Below are positions 8,399 through 37,931 of a stretch of DNA of 64,000 nucleotides, one piece after another. Under the pieces are notes generated by a model, which had not been told where the DNA came from, did not search any database, and was given only the letters and a program-made list of their open reading frames with translations. The DNA is from an uncultured Bacilli bacterium (GTDB lineage: Bacteria; Bacillota_I; Bacilli_A; RF39; UBA660), in assembly GCA_934130105.1 (NCBI GenBank), contig CAKOXL010000002.1, forward strand, positions 7,232-71,231. Reading direction: 5' to 3'. The position numbers and the translations under genes were made by a program. How positions within the stretch are numbered: position 1 is the first letter of the stretch; every line of letters begins with the position of its first letter.

Positions 8399-8867
8399 TT
8401 ATATCACCCCTAAACCAGTCTAATACCATTAATATAGCTCCACCAACAATAAAAGTATCGGCTAAATTAAAAATAGGAAAATAATAACTACCAAAAATAA
8501 AACCTATAAAATCAACTACACCACTTCTAATAACTCTATCAAATAAATTACCAATTATTCCACCAAGTATAAATCCAAACGATAAAACTTCAAAAGTATT
8601 AACATCTTCTCTTTTACTTATATAGTAAGTAAATATAAATAAAAACATAATACCAACTATTACCAAAAGATAAGGATAACTATCAAAAATACTAAATGCA
8701 CCACCTGTATTTTTAGTAAATGTTAAATATAAAAAATTAGGAATAACTTTAATAATACTATTAATTGGAATTAAACGAATAACTGCTAGTTTTACTATTT
8801 GATCAATCAAAAAAGTAACTATACCCAAAATATAAATTCTTTTTTTCAATTTTATCCCACCAGTCAT
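8373..8867 (-). CDS. lspA: lipoprotein signal peptidase II
   Basis: Four TM helices, NTGGAFS and FNLADTFIVGG motifs. Confidence 0.9.
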   Translation of the reverse strand: MTGGIKLKKRIYILGIVTFLIDQIVKLAVIRLIPINSIIKVIPNFLYLTFTKNTGGAFSIFDSYPYLLVIVGIMFLFIFTYYISKREDVNTFEVLSFGFILGGIIGNLFDRVIRSGVVDFIGFIFGSYYFPIFNLADTFIVGGAILMVLDWFRGDINEFRSIRK

Positions 8868-14586: not shown

Positions 14587-14602
14587 AACTCCACTCCCCA
14601 AC

Positions 14603-15340: not shown

Positions 15341-15348
15341 AATTCCTC

Positions 15349-17958: not shown

Positions 17959-17983
17959 ACAGCTCACCTCTTTTTACTGCAAA

Positions 17984-19771
17984 TTATAATCCTCCACCAG
18001 AACCGAATGATTCTAACTCTTCTGGTGTAACAATAACATTAATTCTCATACGACGATTTCCACAAACAAACAGTGCTTCTCCTTGAGAATAACGTTTTAT
18101 ACTTTCTTTTTCATTTTCATTTAAATCAATTAAACGGGCAAGATCATCAGTTGCTTGTTTTTTAAGTCCCATTACTAAGTAATATGATGCATTATCAAAT
18201 ATAGCTTTTCCATGAATAATAACTTCTGGTGCGGCAAAATCGCTAGGCTGTTGAGTAATGATAATTGAACCCGTATTATATTTACGAGCACGTCGCTGAA
18301 CTTGTGCTAAAAATTCTGCTCCCAGTGCATTGCTACCAGATAATAAAACATGTGCTTCATCTACCATCAAACAAGTATTAACATTTTTATCTAAGCATAA
18401 TCCCCATGCATACTTTAAAATATTAAAAAATAGTGCGTTACGAATATTATCAGCTGAATTCATTAATTCTTTAATATTAAAAACAATAAAATCAGTATTA
18501 GGATTAACAGTTGTATGGCCATCAAAATAATATCTAAGTTCTTGGGTTAATGGCCTTATTTTAAGCTCTAATTTTTCCATTATCATTCTTTCTTGAGTTT
18601 GTTCTGTCATTGACATTAAACGTCCACGAATAGTCTGATAAACATCTGAAAATGTTGGATAATCATTAGCTGTGTAATTATAAAAATTAGATGTAAAATC
18701 AATTCCAAATCTACGATATGTATCCTGTACTATTTCACTAAACATAGTAAGTACATCTTCTTCAATAGAAGGATCATAATATCTCATAAAACCTTTTAAG
18801 AACTGCAAAGTACGAGTTAAAACTGTATAGCCAAGTCCTTCTTTAATTTCATCTTCATCGGCATCAATTACGATTTGAAGTGGATTAATCATACCATATT
18901 CTCCACCTTTACCAAGATCTATTGATTCACCACCAAAGTTATTTGCCATTTCATAAAGTTCGTTTTCAGGGTCAATGGCAACAATCTGATAACCATTTCT
19001 AATATGACTTCTAAGCATCAATTTAGCTGCAGTTGATTTACCACTACCTGATGTACCTAAAATAATCAAGTTAGCATTATTACGATTGTTTTCTTTCTTT
19101 ATTTGATATAAGAACTGGTTAAATAAGATAACACCACCAGAAAAATCAACTCCAAGTAATGTTGATAAACCTGGATCTTTGATACTATCAAAGATAAATG
19201 GATACATAGCTGCTATTGTAGGTGATGGAATTGGTGTACCAATACGATTTTCAACATCTTGTTTTGGAAAAATAGGAACAATTGATTTTAATATTTTTTC
19301 TTGTTCAAAACGAAGTGATATACCACGCATTTCCATGGCATCCAAATAGTTTTTAACATTTATTTTCTTAAGTTCCAAGTCTTCCTTTGTATCAGCAGTA
19401 ATCATAATATGCATTTGATAATCAAAGATTTTAGCCTGACTACCAGCAAGCATCGTAACAAAAGATTCAAGTGATTCATAATCCAATCTAATTCGCTCAC
19501 GAATAGTATTATCTCTCTCATCCTGATACCTAGTTTTTAAATCAGCTATTTGTTTATTTATCATTTTTGACATAGTAGAAAAAGGTACTGGAATATGTTT
19601 AGCAACAACTTTAATACCAGACATACTAGTTAATGATGATAAATAGCCAGGATATATATATTTTGGATATGAAACAATTGTTAATATTGTTGCATACTTA
19701 CCACTAACAATAAAATCACCAGCATTAAACTGTAACCCCTTAGGAGCAATTTCAGATTTAAATATACTCAT
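17984..19771 (-). CDS. VirB4-family T4SS ATPase, ATPase body (lacks the usual N-terminal domain)
   Basis: Walker A GTSGSGKST, Walker B CLMVDEAH, IIITQQPSDF. Start ATG overlaps the stop of the upstream ORF (ATGA). Confidence 0.9.
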   Translation of the reverse strand: MSIFKSEIAPKGLQFNAGDFIVSGKYATILTIVSYPKYIYPGYLSSLTSMSGIKVVAKHIPVPFSTMSKMINKQIADLKTRYQDERDNTIRERIRLDYESLESFVTMLAGSQAKIFDYQMHIMITADTKEDLELKKINVKNYLDAMEMRGISLRFEQEKILKSIVPIFPKQDVENRIGTPIPSPTIAAMYPFIFDSIKDPGLSTLLGVDFSGGVILFNQFLYQIKKENNRNNANLIILGTSGSGKSTAAKLMLRSHIRNGYQIVAIDPENELYEMANNFGGESIDLGKGGEYGMINPLQIVIDADEDEIKEGLGYTVLTRTLQFLKGFMRYYDPSIEEDVLTMFSEIVQDTYRRFGIDFTSNFYNYTANDYPTFSDVYQTIRGRLMSMTEQTQERMIMEKLELKIRPLTQELRYYFDGHTTVNPNTDFIVFNIKELMNSADNIRNALFFNILKYAWGLCLDKNVNTCLMVDEAHVLLSGSNALGAEFLAQVQRRARKYNTGSIIITQQPSDFAAPEVIIHGKAIFDNASYYLVMGLKKQATDDLARLIDLNENEKESIKRYSQGEALFVCGNRRMRINVIVTPEELESFGSGGGL

Positions 19772-20316
19772 TGTGGCATCACCATCCCAAACGTTGTACT
19801 AGTTCCACCATTTAAGAAATTATCTAAAATAATTCTTAAATCTTCATTACTAGTCTGGCTTGCTATTAAACCAGCCGTTGAAAGTCCACTAATCATAGAA
19901 CGAACTCTCTTTTGAAGTAACTCTACATTCTTCTCTTTAAAAAGAAGATAATATTCTGTATCAACTACATTATTACTTTTAAAGTAATTACCTTTTTGAA
20001 TATCTTGACTAATTAATTTACGAATTTGTTGGTTTTGTTGATTTTGATATTGTAACTGAAGCTGTGATAAATATATTGAAATATCAACAGGTTTATCAGC
20101 AACAACCAACCAAAATTCATAGTCAATTGTATTATAAAAGTTTTTAAGAGCAATAAGCACACTATTCTGAGAATCCTCATCAAGAATAAAAATGTTACGT
20201 GGCGTTATTTTAACACCAGACACTTTATCTTGATTAGGTAAAATAATCATACCATTAGTAATTGACTGAATATTAATCCAGTCTTCAGTCCATTTACTTT
20301 GAGCTTCCTTCATCAA
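19768..20316 (-). CDS. VirB4 N-terminal-domain-like protein (separate 182-aa ORF)
   Basis: The pattern WINIQSITNGMIILPN..VSGVKITPRNIFILDEDSQNSVLIALKNFYNTIDYEFWLVV matches my recollection of the N-terminal region of Tn916 Orf16/TcpF-type VirB4 proteins. ATGA coupling to the ATPase ORF. Confidence 0.55.
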   Translation of the reverse strand: MMKEAQSKWTEDWINIQSITNGMIILPNQDKVSGVKITPRNIFILDEDSQNSVLIALKNFYNTIDYEFWLVVADKPVDISIYLSQLQLQYQNQQNQQIRKLISQDIQKGNYFKSNNVVDTEYYLLFKEKNVELLQKRVRSMISGLSTAGLIASQTSNEDLRIILDNFLNGGTSTTFGMVMPQ

Positions 20317-20611
20317 AGAAACACCAACCCTTCCATATATAACGATTCCTTTGTGTTAAATATTTATATATTTCAATTATTAATTGCCTAACGTTATGGT
20401 AATAGGCAACTGGTAATACGAGAAGACCAGTAATAATACCAGGAGATATCGCAAGTATTGCTACCCAAAGTATATCCATAGGTAAAAACATAACAAGTAG
20501 TAATGTTGTTAACAAACCACTACCAAATATAATTAAATCTATTGGCATAAATAATCCCAGTATTAACTGTCCTCTTTTCGTATTTGCCGGAATCAAATAA
20601 TTTCCATTCAC
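20294..20611 (-). CDS. VirB3/PrgI-like small T4SS membrane protein
   Basis: 105 aa with two TM helices following NTKRGQLILGL. Lies immediately upstream of VirB4 and overlaps the next ORF by 23 nt. Confidence 0.6.
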   Translation of the reverse strand: MNGNYLIPANTKRGQLILGLFMPIDLIIFGSGLLTTLLLVMFLPMDILWVAILAISPGIITGLLVLPVAYYHNVRQLIIEIYKYLTQRNRYIWKGWCFFDEGSSK

Positions 20612-20631
20612 TATCTATCACACTTTCCTTT

Positions 20632-22644
20632 CTATTTTTTTGTAGCTTCTGCATTGGCTTTTGCTGCTTTATAACCAGGATCAGTAACAACACCTGTAAC
20701 GTGTTTGTTAGTTTCACCAAGTGCTTGCTTGATACCAATAGTATCACCTTTAGAAGCATCAGCGCCTTTAATACCATAAGTAGAAAAATCAACTTTAAGA
20801 TTAACATCTTTAGCCGCATCAGAGGCAAGTCTATAATCATTATACTCTGTACCAAAATCATTAAATACGTCATTATTTGTAGGATCTTGTTCATGTCTCT
20901 GAACAGCTGCTACTAAACGTTTACCATGTGCCTGTGTTTGCATATCTTTAATTTTATCTAAAGATAATTGAGCATCTTGCCAAGTGGCAACAGTTTTATA
21001 CTTTGGACGACTAACATATGAATGTGAATCACTATCCCATACATTTTCAGTACCATCTTGCACTTGTTTTGACCAACCATGATCAATAAACCATTGTAAA
21101 CTTTGAGTATTACCTGCTTTAGCACCTTCAGTATGTGACATGAATTCTAGATAATTAATTCCCTTATGCTGAGCATCTAAATCAATTTTTAAATCAGTTT
21201 TTTCAAGTGCTTTTTTCTCTAAAGTGTTCTTATATGCCAAAATAGCCTTATTAGCTGATTCGTAACCAGTCTTTTCTTTAGTCATTCTATCATAATCACT
21301 TTCACCAGAAAATAAAGTCTGTGCCCTAGTGCTTAATCTACCACCAAATGTAGAACCAGAACTAATCCTAGATAAAGCTGTTGCATTATTTTTAGCTTGC
21401 GCATCAATTCCAGTTAATAAAGTAGGCTTATCAGTAGATAATAAAGCGTTACCGCCAGCACCAATAGCGCCTAAACCACTAAATAATGATTTACCAAAAT
21501 TTGTAAAGGCTCTTATTGGAGAAAGACCATTTTTTCTATTTTCTCTATCATACTCATTTCTAGCACGAAGCATAGAGCGTGTAGCACCAATTCCACCAAC
21601 GGCAGTAGCACCCATTCCTAACATTCTAACAAAGTTACCTTTATCTTTAATACCAAGTGCATCAAAAATAAATTTAGGAGCGCTTTTACCAAAAAAGAAT
21701 AAGCCAACCATTAAGAAAGACAATAACATCGTACCATCCCAAACTGCCAATGCACCACCACTCGTACTAGAAAAGAATCCTCTCCAAGCATCTTTAGTTA
21801 CCATAAAATCTACTATATAAACAATAAAGTATAATATTCCAAGATTAATGAATAATTCTCCCCACGTCATCATAAATGTTTTGATCCAATGAGAAAAGGC
21901 ACCATCCTTACTTGATTTAGGATCAATATAACTAATAACTGGAATAGGTGCCATCATTCTAAGAATTATCAATTTAATAGCACGAATAGCTACTTGTATA
22001 GCCATTGAAAATAAACAATAACACATTGCAACACCAACTATCGTCGATATAACAGGCAAATAATCATAGCGATATGTTTTACTTTCACTACTACTGCAAA
22101 TATCATTAATACTAGCTGTTAGCTCCTCTAAATCCTCAATTTCTCCACCTTCACAATCTTTATGTTTGTGAACAAATGCCTGCACCATAGTAACAGCCAT
22201 ATTCTTAGATACAGTAGAAACATCATCACTCTTCATTGGATTAGCTGTTCCAACAATGATTCTAGGAATAACTGGAAGTAATTTATTTTGAAATTCTGTC
22301 ATAAAGCTAAAGAAGGTTGGTAGCATAATAAGCATTAAAAGTACTGTTATTATTCTTGTAACAACCTTTGACACTCCTTGTTCCTTATCATTTATTTTAT
22401 CTGGATTAACTAAATATGTGATAAGAGAAATAGTAATTTTAAATAACATAAATATTCCCAAAATAACATATACTCTTTTTTCAATACTCTCATAAAAGCC
22501 AGTTAGTTCAAAATTAGCAAGTTGAAAAATTATTCTTAAAATTATAGATGCAACAGAATAAACACAATAATCAAAAAAGGCAAAAACTATCCTTAAAAGG
22601 CCCAAAAATACATTCTTTGTGGTCATAATTAAAATTAAATTCAT
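20632..22644 (-). CDS. VirB6/TrbL-like polytopic T4SS channel protein with ~270-aa hydrophilic C-terminal extension
   Basis: At least 7 hydrophobic helices in the first ~400 aa. Positioned between the VirB2-like and VirB3-like genes. The C-terminal third is soluble and rich in K, D, A and T. Confidence 0.65.
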   Translation of the reverse strand: MNLILIMTTKNVFLGLLRIVFAFFDYCVYSVASIILRIIFQLANFELTGFYESIEKRVYVILGIFMLFKITISLITYLVNPDKINDKEQGVSKVVTRIITVLLMLIMLPTFFSFMTEFQNKLLPVIPRIIVGTANPMKSDDVSTVSKNMAVTMVQAFVHKHKDCEGGEIEDLEELTASINDICSSSESKTYRYDYLPVISTIVGVAMCYCLFSMAIQVAIRAIKLIILRMMAPIPVISYIDPKSSKDGAFSHWIKTFMMTWGELFINLGILYFIVYIVDFMVTKDAWRGFFSSTSGGALAVWDGTMLLSFLMVGLFFFGKSAPKFIFDALGIKDKGNFVRMLGMGATAVGGIGATRSMLRARNEYDRENRKNGLSPIRAFTNFGKSLFSGLGAIGAGGNALLSTDKPTLLTGIDAQAKNNATALSRISSGSTFGGRLSTRAQTLFSGESDYDRMTKEKTGYESANKAILAYKNTLEKKALEKTDLKIDLDAQHKGINYLEFMSHTEGAKAGNTQSLQWFIDHGWSKQVQDGTENVWDSDSHSYVSRPKYKTVATWQDAQLSLDKIKDMQTQAHGKRLVAAVQRHEQDPTNNDVFNDFGTEYNDYRLASDAAKDVNLKVDFSTYGIKGADASKGDTIGIKQALGETNKHVTGVVTDPGYKAAKANAEATKK

Positions 22645-22648
22645 ACCA

Positions 22649-23809
22649 TCACTCCCCTATTCCACAAGTTGAAGTAGCAGCTCCCGTTAAATCATTAAAT
22701 ATATCTAAAAGGAAGCTTAAAATAATAGGAATAAAAAATAATGCAACGGCGATGATTAAACGTTTAACAAATTTACTGCTTGCCTTCTTTAAGGCATCCT
22801 TATCATCCTGTAGTATAGCACCAGCGAAATCAACACTACCCATAATAATAACGAAAATAGGTGCTATTATTTGAATCCAACGGAAAACCTTATTAATAAA
22901 ATCAATTAAATCATCACCTAAAATACCTTCACAATTAACTTTAGTTTGATCTCCCCAATCAACAGAATCATTTTTTTTATGATCATTACTAGTTGCATCT
23001 TTAGTAGAAATATTATAATAACCATCTTCCTGATAAGAAACTACGTATTTTGATTTATCTGGACAAGTACCAGTTCTAAATATAGATGAAGTACCAGAAT
23101 TTCTTATTTCAAACTCATTAATATAAGCTCGGCAGACACCAATTAAATCTGTTTTAAAATTAATATCAACAAGTTTATTGTCTGTTGTATATAGTTGACA
23201 TCCATTGGTTAATGTAGTACATGGATCTTGATTTGAAATTGAATCAGTATTTTTATTTATCTCATTATAATTTTGAAAGCTATTACCATCTGCACTTACA
23301 GTAATAACAGGTGAAACTTTAACATAATTTTTGCCAGTTGGTTCATTTTCAGAAATAGTTACATACTTGTAAAAATCCATTGTTGATATTCTTTGAGAAT
23401 TGTCTACAATAAGATATATCGTTTTACATTGACTATAGCTTCTAGAACCATCAAAGTACTTATATATTTGACTATCCATTGGAAGATAATTTTCAGAACT
23501 ATATGAATCACCATCACTTGTTTTAAAATTCCAGCTAAATTTATAGGCTGATTGATCAGTACTATCCTTCCAATTTTTTTCATTATCCTTATATGAACTC
23601 TTACCCACACTAAAAACTAAATTATAAGTAATATTATCAAAATCTTCACCATCAGCATTAAATTTGCCACCAGTAAGTTCAGCATCAACATTCCAAGTAC
23701 ACTTTGTAAAATTAATCTCGCTTTCAGTAATAGCATCAACATTAACATTAATAAAATTAATTATTAAAAAGCTGATAATTGTAAATAAAATTTTATTTCT
23801 AGCTTTCAT
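22649..23809 (-). CDS. secreted ectodomain fused to a VirB2-like two-helix membrane hairpin (paralogue 3)
   Basis: Signal peptide MKARNKILFTIISFLIINFINVNVDA, a ~290-aa Cys-containing domain, then the C-terminal module IQIIAPIFVIIMGSVDFAGAILQDDKDALKKASSKFVKRLIIAVALFFIPIILSFLL. Confidence 0.65.
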   Translation of the reverse strand: MKARNKILFTIISFLIINFINVNVDAITESEINFTKCTWNVDAELTGGKFNADGEDFDNITYNLVFSVGKSSYKDNEKNWKDSTDQSAYKFSWNFKTSDGDSYSSENYLPMDSQIYKYFDGSRSYSQCKTIYLIVDNSQRISTMDFYKYVTISENEPTGKNYVKVSPVITVSADGNSFQNYNEINKNTDSISNQDPCTTLTNGCQLYTTDNKLVDINFKTDLIGVCRAYINEFEIRNSGTSSIFRTGTCPDKSKYVVSYQEDGYYNISTKDATSNDHKKNDSVDWGDQTKVNCEGILGDDLIDFINKVFRWIQIIAPIFVIIMGSVDFAGAILQDDKDALKKASSKFVKRLIIAVALFFIPIILSFLLDIFNDLTGAATSTCGIGE

Positions 23810-23821
23810 TATTACTCACCC

Positions 23822-24565
23822 CTACTCTATATTAAGCCAACAATTCTTCCAATCATCTCTATTACCAACATCTGTTTTAGCAACCATACCAATTACTATT
23901 GAAACAATCGTTGTTATAAAGAATACAAAAATAGCTGATAAGATTCTTTTTACAAATTTTGAAACACTATCTTTACCACTTTTATCATCACCAGACATCA
24001 TAGCTTTAATAAGATCAATAGTACCCATTAATATTAATAAAATTGGCACAAAAATTTGAATTGTATTAAAAACTACTCTCTTTAAAAATATTATTGCTGG
24101 CTTTAATGCTGTAGGGCATCCATATTCATCATTGTCATCTTTATCAGCACTAGAATTGCCACAAGAAGGATTAGTTATTTTACAATCACCAGAACAAAAC
24201 TGTTCATAATTTTCGTCTGTTTTGTTACAATAACTATTAATAATAGAATTAGTAATATCGGTATTTGATTGAACTGCTTTTATAATACCAGAATTAGTTT
24301 CATAAAAAATATCTTCACAATTTGATGTAGGCATAACACTGCCAAGAGGAAGTTCTCTTGTTGGAACAGTAACACTAACATCATATAAATCTGGAAGAGA
24401 TATTTCCCAATTAAAGGTATCCTTTTTTGTAAGTGTTATTTTAGCCCCAGTCATTTGTCCAACATATGAGCAACTAAAACTATCGGCATAGACACTATCA
24501 CTAAACACAACGATACTTAATATCATAACTATTAATAAACTTATTTTCTTTAATGTTATTTTCAT
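23822..24565 (-). CDS. secreted ectodomain fused to a VirB2-like two-helix membrane hairpin (paralogue 2)
   Basis: I prefer the ATG at 24565 (GGAG 8 nt upstream), giving signal peptide MKITLKKISLLIVMILSIVVFSDSVYA. C-terminal module IQIFVPILLILMGTIDLIKAMMSGDDKSGKDSVSKFVKRILSAIFVFFITTIVSIVIGMV. Confidence 0.65.
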   Translation of the reverse strand: MKITLKKISLLIVMILSIVVFSDSVYADSFSCSYVGQMTGAKITLTKKDTFNWEISLPDLYDVSVTVPTRELPLGSVMPTSNCEDIFYETNSGIIKAVQSNTDITNSIINSYCNKTDENYEQFCSGDCKITNPSCGNSSADKDDNDEYGCPTALKPAIIFLKRVVFNTIQIFVPILLILMGTIDLIKAMMSGDDKSGKDSVSKFVKRILSAIFVFFITTIVSIVIGMVAKTDVGNRDDWKNCWLNIE

Positions 24566-24608
24566 AATCAACACTCCTTGAAGTAAAATAATCCAAAATA
24601 ATTATAAC

Positions 24609-24648
24609 ATAAAAAAAATAATAGCAAAACATATAATTTGCTATTATT
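24609..24648 (-). terminator. strong rho-independent terminator directly after the short VirB2-like gene
   Basis: Perfect 12-bp stem AATAATAGCAAA (24617-24628) / TTTGCTATTATT (24637-24648), followed on the minus strand by TTTTTTTT. Confidence 0.8.
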
Positions 24649-24667
24649 TAAATTTTTATGAATTATA

Positions 24668-25015
24668 CTAGTTACCAGCAGCGTCCCAGCAAGCACCCCA
24701 ACCAGTAGTATCACCAGTGCCACCATGTTCATCACCACTAACATTAGCAAATAAATTCATAACTAATGTTACGATAGTTACTACAAAGAAAATAGCTACG
24801 GCGTAAATTACACGTTTAATTAATTTACTAGTTGCACCTTTAATTTCTTTATCGTCACTTGACATAACAGCTTTACCTAAATCAATTGAACCCATTAATA
24901 TTAAAACAATAGGGATACCAATTTGAATTAAAGGAAAAACACCTTTTCTAATAAATTGAACTATTGGTAATAAACCATTACAAGCATCAGCCATTATTTG
25001 TGTTAAATTAGACAT
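24668..25015 (-). CDS. VirB2/TrbC-like pilin-type protein (115 aa, paralogue 1, candidate major subunit)
   Basis: Hairpin IQIGIPIVLILMGSIDLGKAVMSSDDKEIKGATSKLIKRVIYAVAIFFVVTIVTLVMNLF. The AAGGAGGA SD abuts the ORF-track ATG at 25021, so the ATG at 25015 (6-nt spacing, MSNLTQ) is the likely start. Confidence 0.65.
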   Translation of the reverse strand: MSNLTQIMADACNGLLPIVQFIRKGVFPLIQIGIPIVLILMGSIDLGKAVMSSDDKEIKGATSKLIKRVIYAVAIFFVVTIVTLVMNLFANVSGDEHGGTGDTTGWGACWDAAGN

Positions 25016-25039
25016 AAACATCCTCCTTCGTATGTACTT

Positions 25040-25140: not shown

Positions 25141-25176
25141 ATAAAAAACAAAGAAAATTAATTTTATTCTTTGTTT
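25141..25176 (-). terminator. rho-independent terminator ending the Tad-like transcription unit
   Basis: AAACAAAGAA (25146-25155) / TTCTTTGTTT (25167-25176) 10-bp stem overlapping the stop codon, followed on the minus strand by TTTATTTAT. Confidence 0.7.
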
Positions 25177-26137
25177 AATAATTATTTATACCAAGTTTAC
25201 TAAGTAGGTTTGATAATACATCGGTATTATTAAGTCTCTCATCAAGTGGTGGTAATACAAAGAAAGTTTTAATACCAGCTTCATATTCAAATTCTTTAAC
25301 ATCACTTTCTGGTAAAATACTTTGTGCCACAACTATTTTTCTACCAGCAAGTTTCTCAAATATCTTACGATCCCTCAACATTAACTTATTTAATTTTATA
25401 GTAGATGGTTCTATTAAATAAAGTACATCATTACATACTTCCTCATTACCACTACTATTTAAATCAACTAAAATAACACTAAAAGCCTTCCTTTTTAATA
25501 ACTCACTAGCTAAGTTATCTTTAGTAACAGATATCATATCTTGATCGTGAAAGTATGAAAAATCTCTTTTATCAACTTCAATTGCCAAAACAGATTTACC
25601 CATATTTTTTATTTCACGTTTCAACATATAAGTTAACATAGTAGCGCCAGAATGTTCAGTAACATTTTTAATACCCAAAATATAAGTTCCAGCCTGAACT
25701 ACTTGTTGAACTCCACCATCACTAATAACTACACCACCACTATCTGATGAGCCACCATCTATTTGATGTAAATGAGCAACATCACGGTAAGTATTAGGAT
25801 TATTAAGTAAATAATTTACACCATCCAAGTTAGTAGTAAAGTTATAAATTCCCATTGAAATTAATTTTGATAAAAAGCTAGGTGCTAAACATTCAGGTGT
25901 ATCCGGTAATAAAACAATAATCTTTTCAATATCAAGTGACATTGCAAATTTTTGTAAATTACGAACGTCTTTATAATTTTTTATGGCCGTTAAATCAAGA
26001 ATCATTCTGCCAAAAAAGAAATTAGAAAACATTTCAATTAATTCATCAGCATCAAATACACCATGTACAGATTTTATTATTTCAATATCCAAATTAGAAA
26101 GTTCTGCTTGTCTTTCATTTGATATAATTACATTCAT
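25175..26137 (-). CDS. TadZ/CpaE-like protein: receiver-like N-domain plus ParA/MinD-like domain with degenerate P-loop
   Basis: The N-terminal ~125 aa have an alternating beta/alpha pattern (ILDLTAIKNY, IIVLLPD, GIYNF). In the C-domain, GIKNVTEHSGATMLTYML ... KSVLAIEVD aligns to the KGGxGKT region of MinD/CpaE but lacks the GKT lysine. Location within the Tad-like cluster. Confidence 0.5.
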   Translation of the reverse strand: MNVIISNERQAELSNLDIEIIKSVHGVFDADELIEMFSNFFFGRMILDLTAIKNYKDVRNLQKFAMSLDIEKIIVLLPDTPECLAPSFLSKLISMGIYNFTTNLDGVNYLLNNPNTYRDVAHLHQIDGGSSDSGGVVISDGGVQQVVQAGTYILGIKNVTEHSGATMLTYMLKREIKNMGKSVLAIEVDKRDFSYFHDQDMISVTKDNLASELLKRKAFSVILVDLNSSGNEEVCNDVLYLIEPSTIKLNKLMLRDRKIFEKLAGRKIVVAQSILPESDVKEFEYEAGIKTFFVLPPLDERLNNTDVLSNLLSKLGINNY

Positions 26138-26151
26138 TTAATCACCAGCCT

Positions 26152-26646
26152 TTACTCACAAGTAGGTAAACCAGAATTAGCACCAGATGAGTATATTAAT
26201 GCTGTTTCACCTTTTGTAGTAAATACATTATTCATAGCTGCTATTTCTGGAAATATCTTATTAAAAATAGGAATATCAATATCTACAAATGTTAAAACAG
26301 TATAATACGCACCTTTATATAAAGAATTATCACTTGATGTACCTGCAATATCTACTTTTTCATATTTATAGCAAAATAATCCATTATTAAGAGGAGCTTC
26401 TGTATAGCCATCTGGACAAGTCCTCTCACCTTTTTGAACGCCATAATTAGTTCTTAAAAATAAATCATCAATTTGCGTAACAGCACTGCAAGTTAATCCT
26501 TCATTCTTTTCGATAATACTCCTAATTTCATTCTTAACGCGAAAGGCTTTAGTGTAATTAACACTAAAAGCCAAATAGCAATTAACAATAATTAAAAATA
26601 TTAAAATCATTTGCATGCTTAACGCACCACCTATAGCGTCTCTCAC
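26152..26646 (-). CDS. TadE/pseudopilin-like protein with Cys-bracketed ectodomain
   Basis: GTG start with a GGTGA SD. The leader MRDAIGG is followed by a hydrophobic helix (ALSMQMILIFLIIVNCYLAF). The leader resembles that of the adjacent small pilin ORF (M-[KR]-[DE]-A-x-G). Confidence 0.5.
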   Translation of the reverse strand: MRDAIGGALSMQMILIFLIIVNCYLAFSVNYTKAFRVKNEIRSIIEKNEGLTCSAVTQIDDLFLRTNYGVQKGERTCPDGYTEAPLNNGLFCYKYEKVDIAGTSSDNSLYKGAYYTVLTFVDIDIPIFNKIFPEIAAMNNVFTTKGETALIYSSGANSGLPTCE

Positions 26647-26666: not shown

Positions 26667-26840
26667 TTAACCTTGTGCACAAGCATCAGGATTTTCTTTA
26701 CAATCAGTACCAATATTATTCCATTGACCAGTAATTGTATTTTTTATTTGTGGCCACATAAACCAGAAAAATGCAATAATTGCTCCAATTGCGATAATTG
26801 TAACAACAGTCATATTTAATTCACCGGTTGCCTCTTTCAT
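26667..26840 (-). CDS. Flp-sized pilin candidate, 57 aa (not in the ORF track)
   Basis: Codon-by-codon translation gives MKEATGELNMTVVTIIAIGAIIAFFWFMWPQIKNTITGQWNNIGTDCKENPDACAQG. AAGGAGGG SD lies 6 nt upstream, with TGGTATAAT further upstream. Short charged leader ending in Gly, one hydrophobic helix, short tail with a Cys-x6-Cys loop. Confidence 0.6.
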   Translation of the reverse strand: MKEATGELNMTVVTIIAIGAIIAFFWFMWPQIKNTITGQWNNIGTDCKENPDACAQG

Positions 26841-26870
26841 TTACATTCCCTCCTTATTTTATACATTCTT

Positions 26871-26899
26871 ATTATACCATAAATTTTAATCATTACTAT
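26871..26899 (-). promoter_or_regulatory. extended -10 promoter in front of the small pilin ORF
   Basis: TGGTATAAT (26879-26871). No good -35 (ATAGTA). Confidence 0.5.
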
Positions 26900-28431
26900 A
26901 TTTTTTTAAAAATTTTATACATTATACTGTCATCTTCATTACTATCTAAATCACTATAATATTTTGTATATATAACTTCATAATTAGAATTATTAGATAA
27001 ATATTTATACATAGGACTATAATTATCAACTAATAAGTGTGTAAATTGATATTTTTCTAAAAATAATTCTATATCCAATTTTCCTGATTCTAACTGATAT
27101 AATTCCTTTAAAATATCATACTTTTTGTTATTAGCTTTAAGAAATATTTCAGCACGACTATCACTATAAGTTTTAACCCCTAAGTATTCAGCATAATTAC
27201 ACTCTTCATAAATACAAAAAAGTCTAATATCACTAATATTTTCTTGGTTTACCATAGTGTTAACACCAGTAGCAATGCTACTAGAAAAATTAACTTTTGA
27301 ATTATTTACATGATATAAAAGTGTTAGTAATACCAAGATACATAATATTAAGAATAAAGATTTAGCTCTTTTTTTTAGCTTATCACTAGGTTCCTTGACT
27401 ACATAAAATTTATCTTGCAAATAATAAGAAATTGGATAAATAGAACCAATTATAAAAAATAAAAGACCTCTATTTGAAGAAATAGCCAAATAAGTAGTAC
27501 CAATTAATAATAAGAAATGATATATCTTAATTTCTTTTTTTATATAAATTATATATATCAAATATACTAAAAAAATAATTAAATATGTAGTAATACCAGC
27601 AAAATTATGAATGCTAGGTACCATCATCTCACCAACTAAATTATAAATCCATGAAACATTATAAGAAGTTAATACATAGGTCATTGCTTTTATACCATAT
27701 GGATTAATAAATCCAGCTATTATCATACCCAAAATAGGAACTAAAAAATCTCTTCTTTTACCACCAGTAGATACAACCTTTCCAATTTTAAATGAAAACG
27801 TATTAATAAAAAATGGTAGAAAAAAACAAAATAACATTAACCACATAGAAGCATGACAATTTATCATTATTAATGATAGTAATGGTAAAAATAATAACAC
27901 TCTTTTTTCTTTAGTTTTTTCATACTTTTCTAATATGTATAATTCTGTTAATAATAAAGATGTAGAAAATATCTGTGGACGTGATGTTAAAAAAGATAAA
28001 TCAAATAAAGTTACTATAATAGTAGTAAATAATGCTGAAAGATTTCTCTTATTATTAGTAACTAACATTAATAATTTATAAGTTATAAATACTATATAAA
28101 TATTTACTAAGTTAACAATGAAATATATACCATTATTACCAAATAAACTATAGGTTTTATAAAATAACACATCTATTAACCATTGTTGAATCACTAAATT
28201 TAGTCCTTCGTGAATAGTAAAAGGATCAATATTAGGAAATCCATGATTTAAGATGTACTTCCCATAATTTAAAATAAACCAAGTATCATCATTCAAATAA
28301 GTTGAACAAATAGCACCAAAACATATGGGAATTAATAAAAAACAAAATGCTTCCCACTTAGAAGGATGATAGTTTATAATTTTATTTTTTATTTTATTTA
28401 TTATTTTCATAATATCATTTATCACTTGCAC
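26896..28431 (-). CDS. polytopic membrane protein, GT-C-fold glycosyltransferase-like (inferred)
   Basis: 511 aa with at least 10 hydrophobic helices, an acidic motif (YLNDDTWF) just after the first helix and a ~130-aa soluble C-terminus. Overlaps the upstream oxidoreductase gene by 17 nt. Confidence 0.45.
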
Positions 28432-29977
28432 TTTCTTGATAATCCTTTTCAGTATTTACATTCCATATATTATCTTTTTTCTTTTTATTATTAATTATAT
28501 TTTTAACAGTTTCAAAAGAAGTTATCATTGAATGATCCATATTATTATATCTATGTTGGCCGTTTCTACCAACGCAATATAAATTATCAAATTTATCTAA
28601 GTATTTAATTAATTTATCAATTTCAGAATAAGTATCAAAATATGCAGGATATGCTTTTTTTACTTTTTCTCTATGATGATCTAACACATCAGCCCTGTTA
28701 ATGATTCCCATAGATACAAGTTCATTAATAGCAAATTCACTACATTCCTTATCAGACATATTCCAAAAATCATCATTTTCACTACAAAAATATTCAAGTC
28801 CTATCCATACAGTATCATCAGGATTTTTAACCATATATGGACTCCAGTTATTAAATATTTGAATTCTACCTATTTTAACATCAGATTCTTGGACATAAAT
28901 CCAACAATCAGGTACAATATTACCTAAAGTTTTAATATTAGTTTCATTTTTTAAATTTAATTTTTTAACCAATAATCCTACTGTAACAAAATCACGATAA
29001 GGAAGACCATTAGCTATTATTTGGATATTTTTAGGTACATTACCATTAATGTCATTTACTAAATCTTTAAGTGGCATAGAAGAAATAAAAATATCACCTT
29101 TTATTTCAACTTCAGTACCATTATTATCACAAACAACAGAAATAATTTTATTATCTCTTATATTTATTTTAACAACTTTATGTTTTTTTAATACTGTTCC
29201 ACCCATATTTTCTATTTCTTGACTAACATCATCCCACAACTGACCTGGTCCATATTTTGGGTAAATGAATTCTTCAATCAAGGAAGTTTCCTTCTTGCCA
29301 CCATTTATATGAAAAGTTTTCTTAAACATATCTTTTATTACTAAAGTAACAGATAGTCCCTTAACTCTTTGACTACCCCAATCAGCTGATATTTCCTTAG
29401 GATGCCTACCCCAAAGTTTCTCTGTATATCCTTCAAAAAACATACTATATAATTTTTTTCCAAAACGATTAATATAAAAATTTTCAAGTGAATCTTCTTT
29501 TTTCTTAACAACTGTACTCTTTAAATAACTAAAACCACAAGATATAGTTCTTTTAAATCCCATGTTTTTAAAAGTTTCTTTTTTCATACTAATTGGATAA
29601 TCAAAAAACTTCTTTAAATAATAAATTCTAGAAACTCTATTTCTAATTAGCATAACTTTGTCTTCTTTTTCGGGATCAGGACCATCTTTTACTAGCCTTT
29701 TTTTTCTCTTTAACTTTTTATCATCATAACTTGGCTTACCTTGAATAGATAAAAAATGTGTCCAGAAATTAATGACTTCTTGATTCTTAGAAAAAAAACG
29801 ATGACCTCCAATATCCATTCTATTTCCGTGATAATTAATAGTTCTAGAAATTCCACCGATTTCATTTGTACTTTCTAAAACTATTACATCATATTTTTTG
29901 CTTTTAGTTAATAATTCATATCCAGCTGTTAAGCCAGCTGGACCAGCACCAATAATAACTACCTTTTGTTTCTTCAT
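28415..29977 (-). CDS. FAD/NAD(P)-binding oxidoreductase (amine-oxidase / UDP-galactopyranose-mutase-like fold)
   Basis: N-terminal Rossmann motif [17 protein letters not shown] ... [14 protein letters not shown]. 520 aa. Confidence 0.75.
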
Positions 29978-30082: not shown

Positions 30083-30868
30083 TTAAATATTTGTAAACAT
30101 ATAAAGCATAGCCATTAATATAAGTACCATTACACCAGCACCAGTTGCAACTAACATAATCATAGTTTGACTTTCCATATGATTTAGACGCTCTTTATAT
30201 TTTTGCTCTCTTGCTTTAGCTTGTAAATTAGAAACTGTTCTAGAAAACATCAACAATCTTTCCTGTTTATCTTCTTGTTTACCAAGACCTAAACGATATA
30301 AAAGTCTCATCATTCTCATTGAATCTCTAACTGGATAATCATTAGCAAATTCCATATAAGGATCAATTGATGAATCACCAGCATCAATCTTAGCAATCAT
30401 TTCTCTTAAACCAGGTTTAAAAATATCAGGAGCATCATCAATAGATTTAGCAAGTGCAACAGGAACAGTATAATGTTGAACTAATATTTCTAAACCCTTC
30501 AAATAGTAAGGAAGCATAATATCAATATCATGTAAATGTTTTTTATAATATTTTTTAAGTGATGTATAACTTGATTTAAATGTAATATAACCAACAACAA
30601 TAGATAACACAATATTAATTGCACTTAACTCAGTTAAAAAGATAAATAAGAAAACAACTGTAACCAAAAATCCCATTTTAAGCCTTTTATTAAATAAAAT
30701 ATTAGGATCGACCTTTTCGCCATACCTAGCAGCTACTAAAAAGTCATAATCACTTTCCTTTAGCATATAAAGTACATCTTGATTGTCTTGAATAAATTTT
30801 TTACCATTAATAGTATTATTATAAAGTAAAACACCAAATATTATTGCTCCACAAATAATTACTTCCAT
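30083..30868 (-). CDS. TadC-like platform protein (T2SS F-domain-like polytopic membrane protein)
   Basis: 261 aa with an N-terminal TM, two central TMs, a cytoplasmic helical domain and a C-terminal TM. Its start overlaps the stop of the preceding TadB-like gene. Position is downstream of the CpaF-type ATPase. Confidence 0.55.
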   Translation of the reverse strand: MEVIICGAIIFGVLLYNNTINGKKFIQDNQDVLYMLKESDYDFLVAARYGEKVDPNILFNKRLKMGFLVTVVFLFIFLTELSAINIVLSIVVGYITFKSSYTSLKKYYKKHLHDIDIMLPYYLKGLEILVQHYTVPVALAKSIDDAPDIFKPGLREMIAKIDAGDSSIDPYMEFANDYPVRDSMRMMRLLYRLGLGKQEDKQERLLMFSRTVSNLQAKAREQKYKERLNHMESQTMIMLVATGAGVMVLILMAMLYMFTNI

Positions 30869-31770
30869 TATTCAGCACCAACGTTCTCGTTATAATATTT
30901 TTCTCCTTTAAGAAGAAAATAACTATTAATAATTAAAATACCGTGTAACACAATTAACATTACAGGATTACTTAATATAGCAATATAAGTTTCACGTCCA
31001 AGTAAATATTGAACTAACATAACCATCAAATATAACATAACACCATACTTTAAAAAGGATTTATGGAAATTAGCTCTATCTATACGGTCACGATATACAC
31101 TTTCAACCAACATATCTATATCAAGTTGCATGTTTTCTAAAGATTCTCCAGAATCTCTTGCACCTTCTTTAGTTATCTGTAAAAATAGTTGATGCATATT
31201 TTTAACAATATAATAAGGATATTTTTCACTCATAAATTGAACTGATTCATCAATAGAACCATTTTGATATGCAAGTGAAATCATCATATTAACATCAGAT
31301 AACACAGGATCTTCTAATACACCACTTGCTGCTACCCCTTCAAGGGATTTAACAAAACTCTGAGTAGTTGCAAATTCCATTATAGTATTTGTTGTATATA
31401 CTTGAATCTGTTCAAATAAAAATTCACTATATACTCTTTTACATCTCAAAAAAGCCAAATAAGGAATACATGCATTAGCTATTAAAATATAAATTATTGA
31501 AATAAATAAGTTATAAAAATACAAGTAAGAAATTACACCGGCAAAAATAGTAAAAACTATAACTTGAATTATATATTGCTTAGGAGTATATTCTTGACCT
31601 AATTCTTTAGTCTTCTCTCTTACAACTTTAAAAGAGTAAGGAGCAAACTTATCATAAATTACGCCAGCTTGTTCAGTGATAAATTTATAAACATTCTGGC
31701 CACGATATCGTCTATATATGAAAACAAATAAGGCGATTAATAATATTATAACTAATTCCATTTTCATCAC
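30868..31770 (-). CDS. TadB-like platform protein (T2SS F-domain-like polytopic membrane protein)
   Basis: 300 aa with the same TM/cytoplasmic-domain/TM layout as its neighbour. 10-nt gap after the ATPase gene. Confidence 0.55.
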   Translation of the reverse strand: MMKMELVIILLIALFVFIYRRYRGQNVYKFITEQAGVIYDKFAPYSFKVVREKTKELGQEYTPKQYIIQVIVFTIFAGVISYLYFYNLFISIIYILIANACIPYLAFLRCKRVYSEFLFEQIQVYTTNTIMEFATTQSFVKSLEGVAASGVLEDPVLSDVNMMISLAYQNGSIDESVQFMSEKYPYYIVKNMHQLFLQITKEGARDSGESLENMQLDIDMLVESVYRDRIDRANFHKSFLKYGVMLYLMVMLVQYLLGRETYIAILSNPVMLIVLHGILIINSYFLLKGEKYYNENVGAE

Positions 31771-31780
31771 TCCCTTACTA

Positions 31781-33559
31781 TTAATTTGTTTGATTTATAT
31801 TTGTATCAAATTGAAAAAACTTAGGTGCTCCAGTATTATCATTAGTAACACCAACCTGATTATTATCCAATTTAGATGAAAGTAAAAAATCAGAGTTAGT
31901 ATTTATATTAGGATTAGTAGTATTTTCTATGTTTACATCAGCTGGTTTAAAAACTAATTCATTTGATTCAGCTCCAACCGGAATATCTGGTCTTGGTATA
32001 GTAAATATATCATTATTACTTTGAGAAGTATTAACATTATTAGTTTGATTATTTACATTAGTAAAAATATTATCAATATCAACTAAATTAGGATTAATAT
32101 TATTACTATTATTTATAACATCTTGATTGCTAGAAAAATTAGGATTAACATTTACAGTATTGTCTAAATTATTAATTGGCATATTAGTATTTAAAGTATT
32201 ATTAACATTATTAATAGTACTAACACTTTCTACACCATTAAAATTTGGAATATTACTATTAGTGAAAATATCAACTGGTCTATTAATAGTATCTACGCTA
32301 TCATTAATATCAACAGCTTTTACTTCTTGATTAGAATTATTAGTATTAATATCAGTACCTATATTAATATTAGTATTATCAATACTTCCACTAGTATTAA
32401 CAGTAGTATCAATAGTATTAACTTTCTCTAAATTAGAGTTATTATTTAAGTCTACCTCTTCTTTATTAATATCATTAATTGAAATACCACTATCACTAGT
32501 ATCAGTATCATCTATATTACTCTCTATATCAATATTTTGTCCAAGTAGATAATCAATCAAATGCTGACTAGGTTTTTTCTTTTCTATCTTTCCAATCATG
32601 TTTTTCTGATAAATAACATTATATACCGGTTTATTAGTCTCTTCATCTATATAAAACTCCGTGATTTCATCTATTTCACGATGAAATTTACCATATTTTC
32701 TACTATAATATGCCTTAATATGAACACCAATTTGAATATAACGATAAATAGTACTTAAGAACTGATCAACATCCAAATCTGTTTCCATAAGTGAATATAG
32801 ACGATGTGGAATAGCACTAGCTTTATCAGAGTGAATAGTAGATAAAATATTATGTCCTGATGAAATTGAGTTACGAACAGCAGTAACGGCTTCTGCACTA
32901 CGAACCTCTGATAACAATATCCATTTAGGATTTTGTCTCATACAAGTAACAAGTACATCAGAATATGATGCTATATTATTAGTCTTCATAGCAACAATAT
33001 CACGATGAGGATAAATTTTATCTAAGTGAAGTTCCAAAGTATCCTCAATCGTAATAATTTTTTCATTTTCTTTAGTATGACTAGCTAAATATTTAACAAA
33101 CTCAGTTTTACCACTACCAGTTTCACCACATACCATGATATTACAGTGCCCATGAACACATTTTATCAAAAAATCATGTATATCTTTAGTAATATAATCT
33201 TCTTTTAATAAATTTTCTTCTTTTAGACGAATCTTAGCTGGAGTCTTACGAATAACTAACGCGATACCATTGGTAGCAATTGATTCATGGACAAAGTTAA
33301 GACGTAATTCAGGACTCTCAGCATCCAAAAAGGGACTGGCATTATTGAATGTAGTACCCATTACATTTGAACACTGAAAGGCAAGTTTTTCAACCACTGA
33401 ATTATTTATTTTTGGATTATCAACTCGGTAAGAGCCTTTTTCTAATGAACGAAGCCAGATTTGGCCATTATTAGTATAAGAAATATCAGTAATATCATCA
33501 TTATCAATATATTCTTTAAATGCCCCAAAATCAAGTTGTTCAAACATACTATCTTTCAT
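31781..33559 (-). CDS. CpaF/TadA (VirB11-superfamily) secretion ATPase with ~230-aa Asn-rich C-terminal tail
   Basis: Walker A VCGETGSGKTEF, Asp box IITIEDTLEL, Walker B-like RQNPKWILLSEVR, His box SGHNILSTIHSD. The tail is N/T/I/D low complexity. Confidence 0.9.
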   Translation of the reverse strand: MKDSMFEQLDFGAFKEYIDNDDITDISYTNNGQIWLRSLEKGSYRVDNPKINNSVVEKLAFQCSNVMGTTFNNASPFLDAESPELRLNFVHESIATNGIALVIRKTPAKIRLKEENLLKEDYITKDIHDFLIKCVHGHCNIMVCGETGSGKTEFVKYLASHTKENEKIITIEDTLELHLDKIYPHRDIVAMKTNNIASYSDVLVTCMRQNPKWILLSEVRSAEAVTAVRNSISSGHNILSTIHSDKASAIPHRLYSLMETDLDVDQFLSTIYRYIQIGVHIKAYYSRKYGKFHREIDEITEFYIDEETNKPVYNVIYQKNMIGKIEKKKPSQHLIDYLLGQNIDIESNIDDTDTSDSGISINDINKEEVDLNNNSNLEKVNTIDTTVNTSGSIDNTNINIGTDINTNNSNQEVKAVDINDSVDTINRPVDIFTNSNIPNFNGVESVSTINNVNNTLNTNMPINNLDNTVNVNPNFSSNQDVINNSNNINPNLVDIDNIFTNVNNQTNNVNTSQSNNDIFTIPRPDIPVGAESNELVFKPADVNIENTTNPNINTNSDFLLSSKLDNNQVGVTNDNTGAPKFFQFDTNINQTN

Positions 33560-33585: not shown

Positions 33586-34440
33586 CTATTGATTTGGATT
33601 TATAGTAATTGTTCCATCAGGATTTTCAGTAATACTAGCATCCCAAACAGTAACTTTATTAATAAATTCTTTAAGTACTTCACTAGATATAGCTACTTCA
33701 CCAGGATTTTCTTTTAAAGATTCAGCAGTAGGTACAGGAATAAGTGTTACTTCATATGTTCTTAAATACATTGCTTTACGAAGTAAGATATGATACTCTT
33801 CAGGTACTGCAAATATTATTTGAGATGGTACTTTAACATCTTCTAAGTTTTCAAATACACTATCACCATTAGCATCAACTACGTCAATTACTTTAACATT
33901 TTCAAGTAATTTACCTACCATAATTTTATCTTTTGTATCACTGGTCATATTGTCTTCATCTATTTTATTTACAGCTTTTAAGTAAATATCAATATAATTG
34001 CCTGGATAAATCTTATTACCATATGTAGTAGTTGTATTAACACTCATATTAACAAGTACATACCCTTCAGGATAATCATAAATGATTGAATCTGGTAAAT
34101 CGCTCTTAGATACTACGATACTACCATAAAATAAACTTCCTTGAGGAATAATTGTATCTGCTCTTACATATTTTCCTACTATTTTAGAAACATCAGTAAT
34201 AGCATTACCCTTTAACATTGCAGGTGGTACTTCAATACTACCTATCATATCACTAGTTATCTTTGTCTTTGGATTAATTGTTGTTGTTGCATATGGAACT
34301 GTAATTGGATTAATTGCTTTTTTAATACGATAATTATATCCAGCATATAACACAATTATAGCTACTACTACACCAACAAAAGTTACAGTATTTTTGTTTG
34401 TTAAAAACTTTTTAACTGTTATGGAAAAATTTCCTTTCAT
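33586..34440 (-). CDS. CpaB/RcpC-like Flp pilus assembly protein (TM + SAF-like domain)
   Basis: N-terminal TM (VTFVGVVVAIIVLYAGY), then VPYATTTINPKTKITSDMIGSIEVPPAML...VGKYVRADTIIPQGSLF, which resembles a SAF domain. Lies immediately upstream of the ATPase. Confidence 0.55.
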   Translation of the reverse strand: MKGNFSITVKKFLTNKNTVTFVGVVVAIIVLYAGYNYRIKKAINPITVPYATTTINPKTKITSDMIGSIEVPPAMLKGNAITDVSKIVGKYVRADTIIPQGSLFYGSIVVSKSDLPDSIIYDYPEGYVLVNMSVNTTTTYGNKIYPGNYIDIYLKAVNKIDEDNMTSDTKDKIMVGKLLENVKVIDVVDANGDSVFENLEDVKVPSQIIFAVPEEYHILLRKAMYLRTYEVTLIPVPTAESLKENPGEVAISSEVLKEFINKVTVWDASITENPDGTITINPNQ

Positions 34441-34453
34441 AAAATCACCCTTT

Positions 34454-34882
34454 CTATTCAGTTACGCTTTGTAAAAGCCTATCTTCTTCATATTTAGTTT
34501 CTAATATTGCATCAATTTTTTGAGTAATATCAAAATTATCACCAGCAAAAGTAGCAACAGTACTAGAGCCAATCTGTATACTTACTTTTGGCGGAGTCTC
34601 ATTCAAATCTATCACTTTTACATGATAATTACGATCTTGGTTAACGTTTGCAGCAAATCTTCTTACAAAGCTTTCTAAGAACTTCTCACGATCCATTCTA
34701 ATAACACCTGTTGTTCTATAATAAGAAGTATCAACAGCATCTATCATTGCTGCTTCGGTTGTTTCTTCTAGTAAATAATAATCAAGTTCACTACCAGATT
34801 GATAATTTTGAATTATATTTACGGCTGCCAGTGTTAATACACCAAGTATAATAATACCTGTTATCATCATTCCTCTACTCAT
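34454..34882 (-). CDS. pseudopilin-like protein (short leader-Gly-hydrophobic helix, 142 aa)
   Basis: MSRGMMITGIIILGVLTLAAVNIIQNY N-terminus. Location between the adhesin-like and CpaB-like genes. Confidence 0.4.
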   Translation of the reverse strand: MSRGMMITGIIILGVLTLAAVNIIQNYQSGSELDYYLLEETTEAAMIDAVDTSYYRTTGVIRMDREKFLESFVRRFAANVNQDRNYHVKVIDLNETPPKVSIQIGSSTVATFAGDNFDITQKIDAILETKYEEDRLLQSVTE

Positions 34883-37915: not shown

Positions 37916-37931
37916 AAATAAACCTCCTATT

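Follow-up and report, generated by a model that had tools for sequence, protein, structure and literature searches.

A conserved small pilin-like gene in a chromosomal type IV secretion locus of uncultured gut Bacilli

We examined a 64,000-nucleotide stretch of DNA (the window; G+C content, 27.9%) from an uncultured Bacilli bacterium (assembly GCA_934130105.1, contig CAKOXL010000002.1, positions 7,232 to 71,231), focusing on a 57-amino-acid open reading frame (ORF) at window positions 26667..26840 on the minus strand. The ORF is a genuine, conserved gene, and on balance we lean toward the view that its product serves as the major pilin in a thin type IV-filament (Tad-like) pilus belonging to a Gram-positive type IV secretion system (T4SS). 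This reading draws on an invariant N-terminus and helix joined to a hypervariable and probably disulfide-stapled tail, a predicted promoter of its own, a pseudopilin-like neighbor (p164), an adjoining ATPase with two membrane proteins, and a CpaB-like protein.

The original prediction, made from the letters of the window, was of a cleanly translating 57-residue ORF, and we recovered exactly that translation on the minus strand. It had also been called unannotated, which holds for its function but not for the gene call, since the gene already appears as a "hypothetical protein" in public records of metagenome-assembled genomes (MAGs). Relatives were found in 523 clusters at 90% identity by a word-indexed search and in 703 clusters at 50% identity (E ≤ 1e-3) by a full hidden Markov model (HMM) search through 1.84 billion representatives; when one genome per GTDB species was scanned, at least 507 species proved to encode the gene. 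The carriers are nearly all uncultured gut MAGs labeled "Bacilli" or "Tenericutes," including Candidatus Onthousia, Scybalousia, Clostridium sp. CAG:762, and Bacillus sp. CAG:988. Relatives lie in the same locus without exception, with reading frame and leader kept at the same position, a check that the original prediction had proposed. The family is large and unnamed and is absent from Pfam and NCBIfam. PHROGs held nothing relevant to the protein or its neighbors, and a plasmid database gave no match to the gene region by megablast or to the 57-residue protein by tblastn.

Among 84 distinct nucleotide versions of the gene, codons 1 to 12 show a synonymous divergence (pS) of 0.55 and a nonsynonymous divergence (pN) of 0.019, a pN/pS of 0.035; over codons 1 to 33 the ratio is 0.31. 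A Shine-Dalgarno sequence, AAGGAGGG, occupies 26848..26855 on the minus strand. The original prediction had named this same sequence upstream of the ATG at a spacing of 6 nucleotides, which we correct to 7, and of 84 homologous upstream regions, 83 contain a Shine-Dalgarno-like site. The gene is genuine because its frame is kept across all those species, its N-terminal codons are under strong constraint, and its ribosome-binding sequence is conserved. A chance, unexpressed ORF in AT-rich DNA would suit its short length, and AT-rich genomes are full of spurious promoter-like sites; that explanation now has a negligible probability, being refuted by the species spread and by a pattern in which synonymous change is saturating and N-terminal amino-acid change is almost nil, and the conserved Shine-Dalgarno site argues against it as well. 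Between the Shine-Dalgarno sequence and the start codon, positions 26841-26847 read AATGTAA and so contain an ATG-TAA mini-ORF just before the real ATG.

Farther upstream lies the candidate promoter of the pilin-like gene, the extended −10 element TGGTATAAT (26871..26879, minus strand, thus read from 26879 to 26871). It had been claimed from the window, and the signal is upheld across relatives. A single-sequence promoter scan found promoter-like matches in the region to be no commoner than in shuffled sequence; the window match alone is not significant in such AT-rich DNA, and its support comes from the relatives. The pattern TGnTAnAAT occurs 22 to 39 nucleotides before the ATG in 54 of 91 pilin-like genes, compared with 2.6% of background 70-nucleotide windows. 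It is also frequent before VirB2-like and large surface-protein genes, and homologs of the two longer VirB2-like genes often have an extended −10 of their own. Upstream of the ATPase gene, both membrane-protein genes, and the p164 gene we found no case. Because the element is conserved before the small gene and absent before these others, the small gene is predicted to carry its own promoter within the operon. Together with the strong Shine-Dalgarno sequence, this suggests an abundant structural subunit.

Across 148 representatives of 50%-identity clusters, residues 1 to 14 follow the consensus M-K-[EAD]-A-[TSM]-G-E-L-[NSQ]-[ML]-T-[VLI]-[VI]-T, in which G6, E7, L8, T11, and T14 are essentially invariant (G6 is kept in 147 of the 148). 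A nearly invariant hydrophobic helix of about 20 residues comes next, followed in most members by a W-P-x-I motif. In the window protein the MKEATG leader continues as ELNMTVVTIIAIGAIIAFFWFMW, with the helix at about residues 10 to 29, the WPxI motif, and a variable tail. The arrangement is that of class III-type signals, with a short charged leader ending in Gly and then about 20 hydrophobic residues. The Flp-like size and layout seen in the original prediction hold up for the family as a whole (57 residues against a median of 60, a leader closed by an invariant Gly, a single helix, and a variable tail that is exposed).

Past about residue 40, sequence and length vary freely, and total length ranges from 46 to 141 amino acids. 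Cysteines are confined to the tail, and 262 of 268 sequences have 0, 2, 4, or 6 of them. The even count and the restriction to the tail indicate that the tail is extracytoplasmic and, where it has cysteines, is probably stapled by disulfides. The Cys-x6-Cys pair noted earlier is present in the window protein but is not a family trait: about half of the members have no cysteine, and their tails are just 8 to 15 residues long. Some lineages carry tandem paralogs of the gene (at about 10001-10560 in loci L045, L051, L054, L061, L066, L072, L073, L075, and L080) with products of 75 to 92 residues, the second of which often ends in C-P-[WY]-K-G and has four to six cysteines. Two pilin-like genes are accompanied by two p164 genes with no exception (8 loci). 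A hypervariable exposed tail suggests strain-level diversification of the cell surface in the gut.

The p164 gene (26152..26646, minus strand) begins with GTG twenty nucleotides past the stop codon of the pilin-like gene and encodes a 164-residue pseudopilin-like protein with a long N-terminal helix and a beta-sheet head. Its product starts MRDAIGG, and over 83 loci, covering all lineages examined, the family starts with M-[RK]-[DE]-[AS]-x-G-[GQ] and continues into a hydrophobic helix. The original prediction had proposed that the two proteins share M-[KR]-[DE]-A-x-G, and this start is conserved in both families. Because M[RK][DE][AS]xG is kept in p164 across the 83 loci, the leader that the two have in common is, at the level of sequence, not a matter of chance. 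An hhalign comparison of the two families aligned the first 26 residues alone, at a probability of 20%. The AlphaFold2 (AF2) model of p164 (predicted local distance difference test score [pLDDT], 70; predicted template modeling score [pTM], 0.62) has a helix at residues 2 to 47, a second helix, and a four- to five-stranded sheet, a predicted shape consistent with that of pilins and pseudopilins in general.

The neighborhood of the gene is fixed in these 83 loci. Genes for a class-B-sortase-like protein, a large Cys-rich surface protein, a DUF5411 protein, and CpaB/RcpC come first; a T2SSE ATPase, membrane proteins of 300 and 261 residues, the pilin-like protein, p164, and a 320-residue protein (p320) follow; and one to three VirB2-like proteins, VirB6/TrbL, a VirB3-like protein, a TraC-like protein, VirB4, and a cell-wall hydrolase complete the order. 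None of the 83 loci lacks p164 or p320 beside the small gene. That gene comes directly after the 261-residue gene in 61 of 74 loci, separated from it by 29 to 176 nucleotides.

At the center of this module is a secretion ATPase of the T2SSE/VirB11/TadA superfamily (31781..33559, minus strand; PF00437, 5.6e-26). Two polytopic membrane proteins are encoded beside it on the minus strand, one of 300 residues in the position of TadB (30868..31770; conserved in 72 loci) and one of 261 residues in the position of TadC (30083..30868; conserved in 74 loci). At least 120 homologs were listed for the 261-residue family, all of them close relatives without Pfam domains; the AF2 model of this protein was poor (pLDDT 61), and a fold search from it gave nothing meaningful. 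On the other side of the ATPase gene, a CpaB/RcpC-like protein with SAF and RcpC domains (33586..34440, minus strand) scores above cutoff for SAF (24.5 bits) and just short of it for RcpC (27.2 bits versus a cutoff of 28.8), with a TIGR03177 match at 5e-9. Next to it is a DUF5411 protein with an N-terminal membrane anchor (34454..34882, minus strand; PF17424, 3.8e-48). DUF5411 has been reported as a neighbor of CpaF and of PilC/GspF in gut Clostridia, in operons predicted to serve secretion (PMC9523054), and tblastn with the DUF5411 protein gave no match in the plasmid database.

The remainder of the block encodes a T4SS. Its core (12214..22644, minus strand) comprises VirD4, a lipoprotein, a SpoIID/CHAP hydrolase, VirB4, a TraC-like protein, a VirB3-like protein, and VirB6/TrbL, and between this core and p320 lie three VirB2-like (T4SS_pilin) paralogs (22649..25021, minus strand) with weak PF18895 matches and homologs in 72 to 76 loci. 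VirD4 belongs to the CD1115 family (311 bits versus a cutoff of 250), and VirB4 and VirB6 resemble their counterparts in the integrative and conjugative elements (ICEs) of mycoplasmas. The whole block from 12214 to 44486 is chromosomal, flanked by BipA, LspA, and RluD on one side and by PNPase and metabolic genes on the other, and inspection of the window by eye revealed neither relaxase nor integrase. The locus is a chromosomal T4SS in which no relaxase was seen, and its conserved order in hundreds of gut Bacilli species suggests a vertically inherited core organelle, not a mobile element. The Flp framing of the original prediction was therefore incomplete: the module sits inside a Gram-positive T4SS locus and is not a free-standing tad locus. 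The three VirB2-like paralogs have a common C-terminal two-helix domain and very different Cys-rich N-terminal extensions. VirB4 is seemingly split (17984-20316), as it is in 53 related loci; on the Mbov_0397-family model from mycoplasma ICEs, the 182-residue TraC-like ORF covers positions 99-276 and the 595-residue ORF positions 296-893.

The closest studied relative of the locus is the operon for conjugation on plasmid pLS20 of Bacillus subtilis. Among plasmid proteins, those most similar to the ATPase are the product of pLS20 gene 37 ("tadA," putative VirB11) and its relatives (32.8% identity, E 3e-37). We compared HMMs of the window families with 16 pLS20 proteins and found unique best matches for p164 in gene 40 (2.7e-6), for the 261-residue family in gene 39 (7e-6), and for the 300-residue family in gene 38 (2.5e-4); the p320 family matched none of the 16. 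Gene 36 is DUF5411-like (E 1.4e-5). Genes 38 and 39 both encode polytopic membrane proteins, and the former aligned weakly, end to end, with T2SSF (E 0.19), an indirect T2SSF link for the 300-residue protein. The product of gene 40 has 120 residues, an N-terminal helix, and a DUF4320 match at E 0.006. The ATPase module of the window is thus colinear with pLS20 genes 36-40. The two systems further share a single-pass protein of about 50 residues (gene 41 in pLS20, 47 residues), a VirB2-like T4SS_pilin protein, and a CD1115-family VirD4, which in pLS20 is followed by VirB6, a VirB3-like protein, and VirB4. They differ in that pLS20 is a plasmid with a relaxase and has neither CpaB nor a p320 homolog. 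Gene 41 also differs from the small gene of the window in its place after gene 40 and in its lack of an MKxAxG start, and the two are not detectably homologous: pilin-family HMMs A1 and A8 did not match it (E ~1), and the likeness lies in position and layout only.

A 2021 paper describing this plasmid family gives no function for genes 36, 38-41, and 45, which it lists as unknown, calls gene 37 an unexpected VirB11 homolog, and says that no pilus components are encoded (PMC8557374). In the literature we found neither the small-gene family nor pLS20 genes 36-41 connected with a pilus. The 76-residue product of gene 45 (L084, 14035-14265) passes the PF18895 (T4SS_pilin) threshold at E 1.3e-7, a match that stands against the published statement that the pLS20 family has no VirB2 homolog (PMC8557374).

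The small protein resembles the Flp/Fap pilins of type IVc systems (Flp1 of Aggregatibacter, PilA of Caulobacter; PF04964, with PF16982 Flp1_like as the variant of Firmicutes) in its size range (about 50 to 60 residues), Gly-ended leader, single helix, and short exposed tail, and Flp/Fap loci likewise have an adjoining T2SSE ATPase and CpaB/RcpC together with larger pseudopilin-like proteins that bear the same N-terminal signal. As that family is defined, however, the small protein is by its sequence not a member, because the HMMs, the G/XXXXEY processing motif, and a dedicated peptidase all fail. PF04964 was matched neither by the window protein (E ≤ 0.1) nor by 78 diverse members (E ≤ 1), the window protein matched no Flp, Flp1_like, or TadE model of NCBIfam, and the Flp/Fap and TadE models with which the original prediction could be checked thus returned no Pfam or NCBIfam match at threshold. 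Its remark that G/XXXXEY is absent was right: the sequence runs ...ATG/ELNMTV, and in all 268 family sequences inspected Glu stands at +1 and EY is missing. The locus differs from Flp/Fap loci, too, in having Glu right after Gly, an invariant leader, no TadV/CpaA peptidase, no recognizable TadB/TadC, and a module embedded in T4SS genes. A bona fide Flp/Fap pilin too divergent for the models, assembled by ordinary tad machinery with a TadV/CpaA-type peptidase encoded elsewhere, would fit the size and layout, the adjoining CpaB/RcpC and T2SSE ATPase, and weak Flp1_like matches in 2 of 78 members, all below threshold. We consider it very unlikely, given that PF04964 is never matched, that the processing motif is missing in every member, that the TadB/TadC models are unmatched, and that the leader is invariant in a peptidase-less locus fused to a T4SS.

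Other pilin families were matched only weakly. Archaeal Pilin_N (PF07790) was the commonest Pfam match, reached by 15 of 78 members but by none of them at threshold (best E 0.0028), and the window protein was unmatched. Archaeal type IV pilins also have a short charged leader ending in Gly before a hydrophobic helix; these sub-threshold matches may reflect the hydrophobic helix alone, and no archaeal-type peptidase was found. The small protein is likewise distinct from VirB2/TrbC-type pilins (PF18895/PF04956), having one helix and no PF18895 match, and the VirB2-like genes of the locus are separate. For p164, profile matches below threshold went to TadE/G-like (PF13400; 3 of 76 members) and DUF4320 (1 of 76). 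Taken together, the sub-threshold signals from Pilin_N, Flp1_like, and TadE/G-like all point toward pilins.

If the small protein is a pilin, it would be inserted in the membrane so that the N-terminus faces inward and the C-terminus outward. MKEATG may act as a class III-type signal that a peptidase encoded elsewhere removes by cleavage after Gly6, or it may be retained as a recognition tag. The ATPase, the two polytopic proteins, and CpaB would then pull subunits from the membrane, stacking the conserved helices into a fiber that displays the hypervariable, often disulfide-stapled tails on its surface, with p164 as a minor, priming, or tip pilin. Such a fiber could help the adjoining VirB4/VirB6/VirD4 machine to cross the cell wall or to touch a partner cell. 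There is precedent in the type IVb thin pili of R64 (PilS-PilV) and of PAPI-1 and related ICEs, where a type IV-filament pilus serves VirB4/VirD4 DNA transfer and variable parts of the pilin set partner contact (general background and PMC12857230). Those systems belong to diderms and combine large type IVb pilins with a secretin, a relaxase, and a peptidase of the PilD type, whereas here the host is a monoderm, the pilin is Flp sized, and neither peptidase nor relaxase was seen. The membrane proteases seen in the window are a rhomboid protease (6319..7473) and LspA/signal peptidase II (8373..8867) only; as processors of the leader they lack supporting evidence, lying among housekeeping genes about 19 kb away, and we set them aside.

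Several observations weigh against a pilus. For the small protein no pilin HMM is matched at threshold, and solved structures offer no sequence match. Its invariant Glu is residue 7, which would be +1 and not +5 if the leader is cut after Gly6, and EY does not occur. No A24 prepilin peptidase is encoded among the window ORFs or in the 83 loci, and a GxGDxK-type motif is absent from the six frames of the window and from the ORFs of the 83 loci. A Foldseek search of the PDB with the p164 model gave no significant match (best E 0.27); minor pseudopilins (XcpV/GspI, EpsI) and a Francisella pilin appeared at E 0.7 to 2 only. The 300- and 261-residue proteins show no T2SSF/GspF match, singly or across their families, and hhalign detects no paralogy between the two. 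Profile searches of the pilin-like, p164, p320, 300-residue, and 261-residue families against solved structures returned nothing meaningful. Finally, the ATPase could drive type IV secretion and not a pilus, because VirB11 models score best: its top scores are with VirB11 (4.5e-34) and "TadA family conjugal transfer-associated" (2.6e-28) models, both below cutoff.

Much of this would suit the principal rival explanation, in which the small protein is a single-pass membrane subunit of the secretion machine that does not polymerize, an accessory or specificity part such as a cell-cell recognition or exclusion determinant whose tail discriminates partners, or a stator-like partner of the ATPase module. 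The equivalent module of pLS20 contains just such a protein in gene 41, of unknown function and without a Gly-ended leader, and a hypervariable exposed tail suits recognition as well as it suits a fiber surface; no peptidase was found, the putative platform proteins have no T2SSF match, and the ATPase is VirB11-like. We nevertheless regard it as rather unlikely. The predicted promoter and strong Shine-Dalgarno sequence suggest the abundance of a structural subunit, the leader common to a helix-plus-sheet neighbor fits a filament system better, as does CpaB, and the pilin-family HMM does not match gene 41. Precursors of pheromones and of ribosomally synthesized and posttranslationally modified peptides (RiPPs) likewise pair a conserved N-terminus with a C-terminus that is hypervariable and rich in Cys, and the gene might accordingly encode the precursor of a secreted small peptide (pheromone, bacteriocin, or RiPP) with the tail as the released product. 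This we hold to be very unlikely: the conserved part is a 20-residue transmembrane helix and not a soluble leader, no double-glycine or AxA site is present, half of the tails are Cys-free and only 8 to 15 residues long, and the neighbors are invariably secretion and ATPase genes, with no maturation enzyme or dedicated exporter found.

Should the small protein indeed be a pilus subunit, it may represent a previously unrecognized class of type IV-filament pilin, with an invariant six-residue leader (MKxAxG), Glu at +1, and no peptidase of its own, built by a VirB11/TadA-like module integral to a pLS20-type T4SS; we put this forward tentatively, as a possibility that we ourselves doubt. Gram-positive T4SSs are said to lack VirB11-type ATPases and, Patescibacteria excepted, pili (PMC12857230), a statement that the context of this family contradicts. 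The small gene, p164, and the ATPase module together are a concrete pilus candidate in a Gram-positive T4SS. If the proposal were true, conjugation-type machines of monoderms, now described as having neither pili nor VirB11, would build a pilus after all, and in genome-reduced gut Bacilli the machine would have turned into a core organelle, chromosomal and devoid of a relaxase, that serves cell-to-cell exchange. The most similar case is the chromosomal T4SS of Patescibacteria (PMC12102498), likewise monoderm, FATA-like, and relaxase-less, with tandem variable VirB2-like genes in genome-reduced uncultured hosts; it belongs to another phylum and has no reported Tad-like ATPase/CpaB/small-pilin module (PMC12102498). 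The same module, of unknown function, is carried by the genetically tractable pLS20, which makes the idea directly testable.

Several other features of the locus deserve mention. The p320 gene (25175..26137, minus strand) encodes a protein of 320 residues with a receiver-like N-terminal half and a degenerate ParA/MinD-like C-terminal half; 3 of 52 members gave weak AAA_31 and CbiA matches. It is possibly TadZ-like, judging from an architecture read by eye. The ATPase of the window has 592 residues compared with 452 in close relatives, the difference being a low-complexity C-terminal extension of about 250 residues rich in Asn, Thr, Ser, and Asp (31781-32540).

Between the 261-residue gene and the pilin-like gene lies a variable two-gene insert (26896..29977, minus strand) encoding a 511-residue polytopic membrane protein with no family match and a FAD/amine-oxidase-like protein. 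The site is an insertion hotspot that is empty in 61 of 74 loci and elsewhere is occupied by transposases of the PD-(D/E)XK family, by an ORF6N protein, or by further unknowns. We considered the FAD-oxidoreductase and 511-residue genes as a pilin-glycosylation island and rejected this, given the unrelated inserts in other loci and the many empty sites.

Upstream of the DUF5411 gene, positions 34892-42121 hold a surface module of a 1007-residue Cys-rich secreted protein and class-B-sortase-like, Ig-like-domain, and DUF4352 proteins, which may be an adhesin counterpart of the pLS20 thioester adhesin Tie. At 8959-9822, a 287-residue ORF has a repetitive Asn-rich N-terminus (NINQTDNINQNNVNNINQT repeated) followed by a membrane anchor and a Cys-containing domain.

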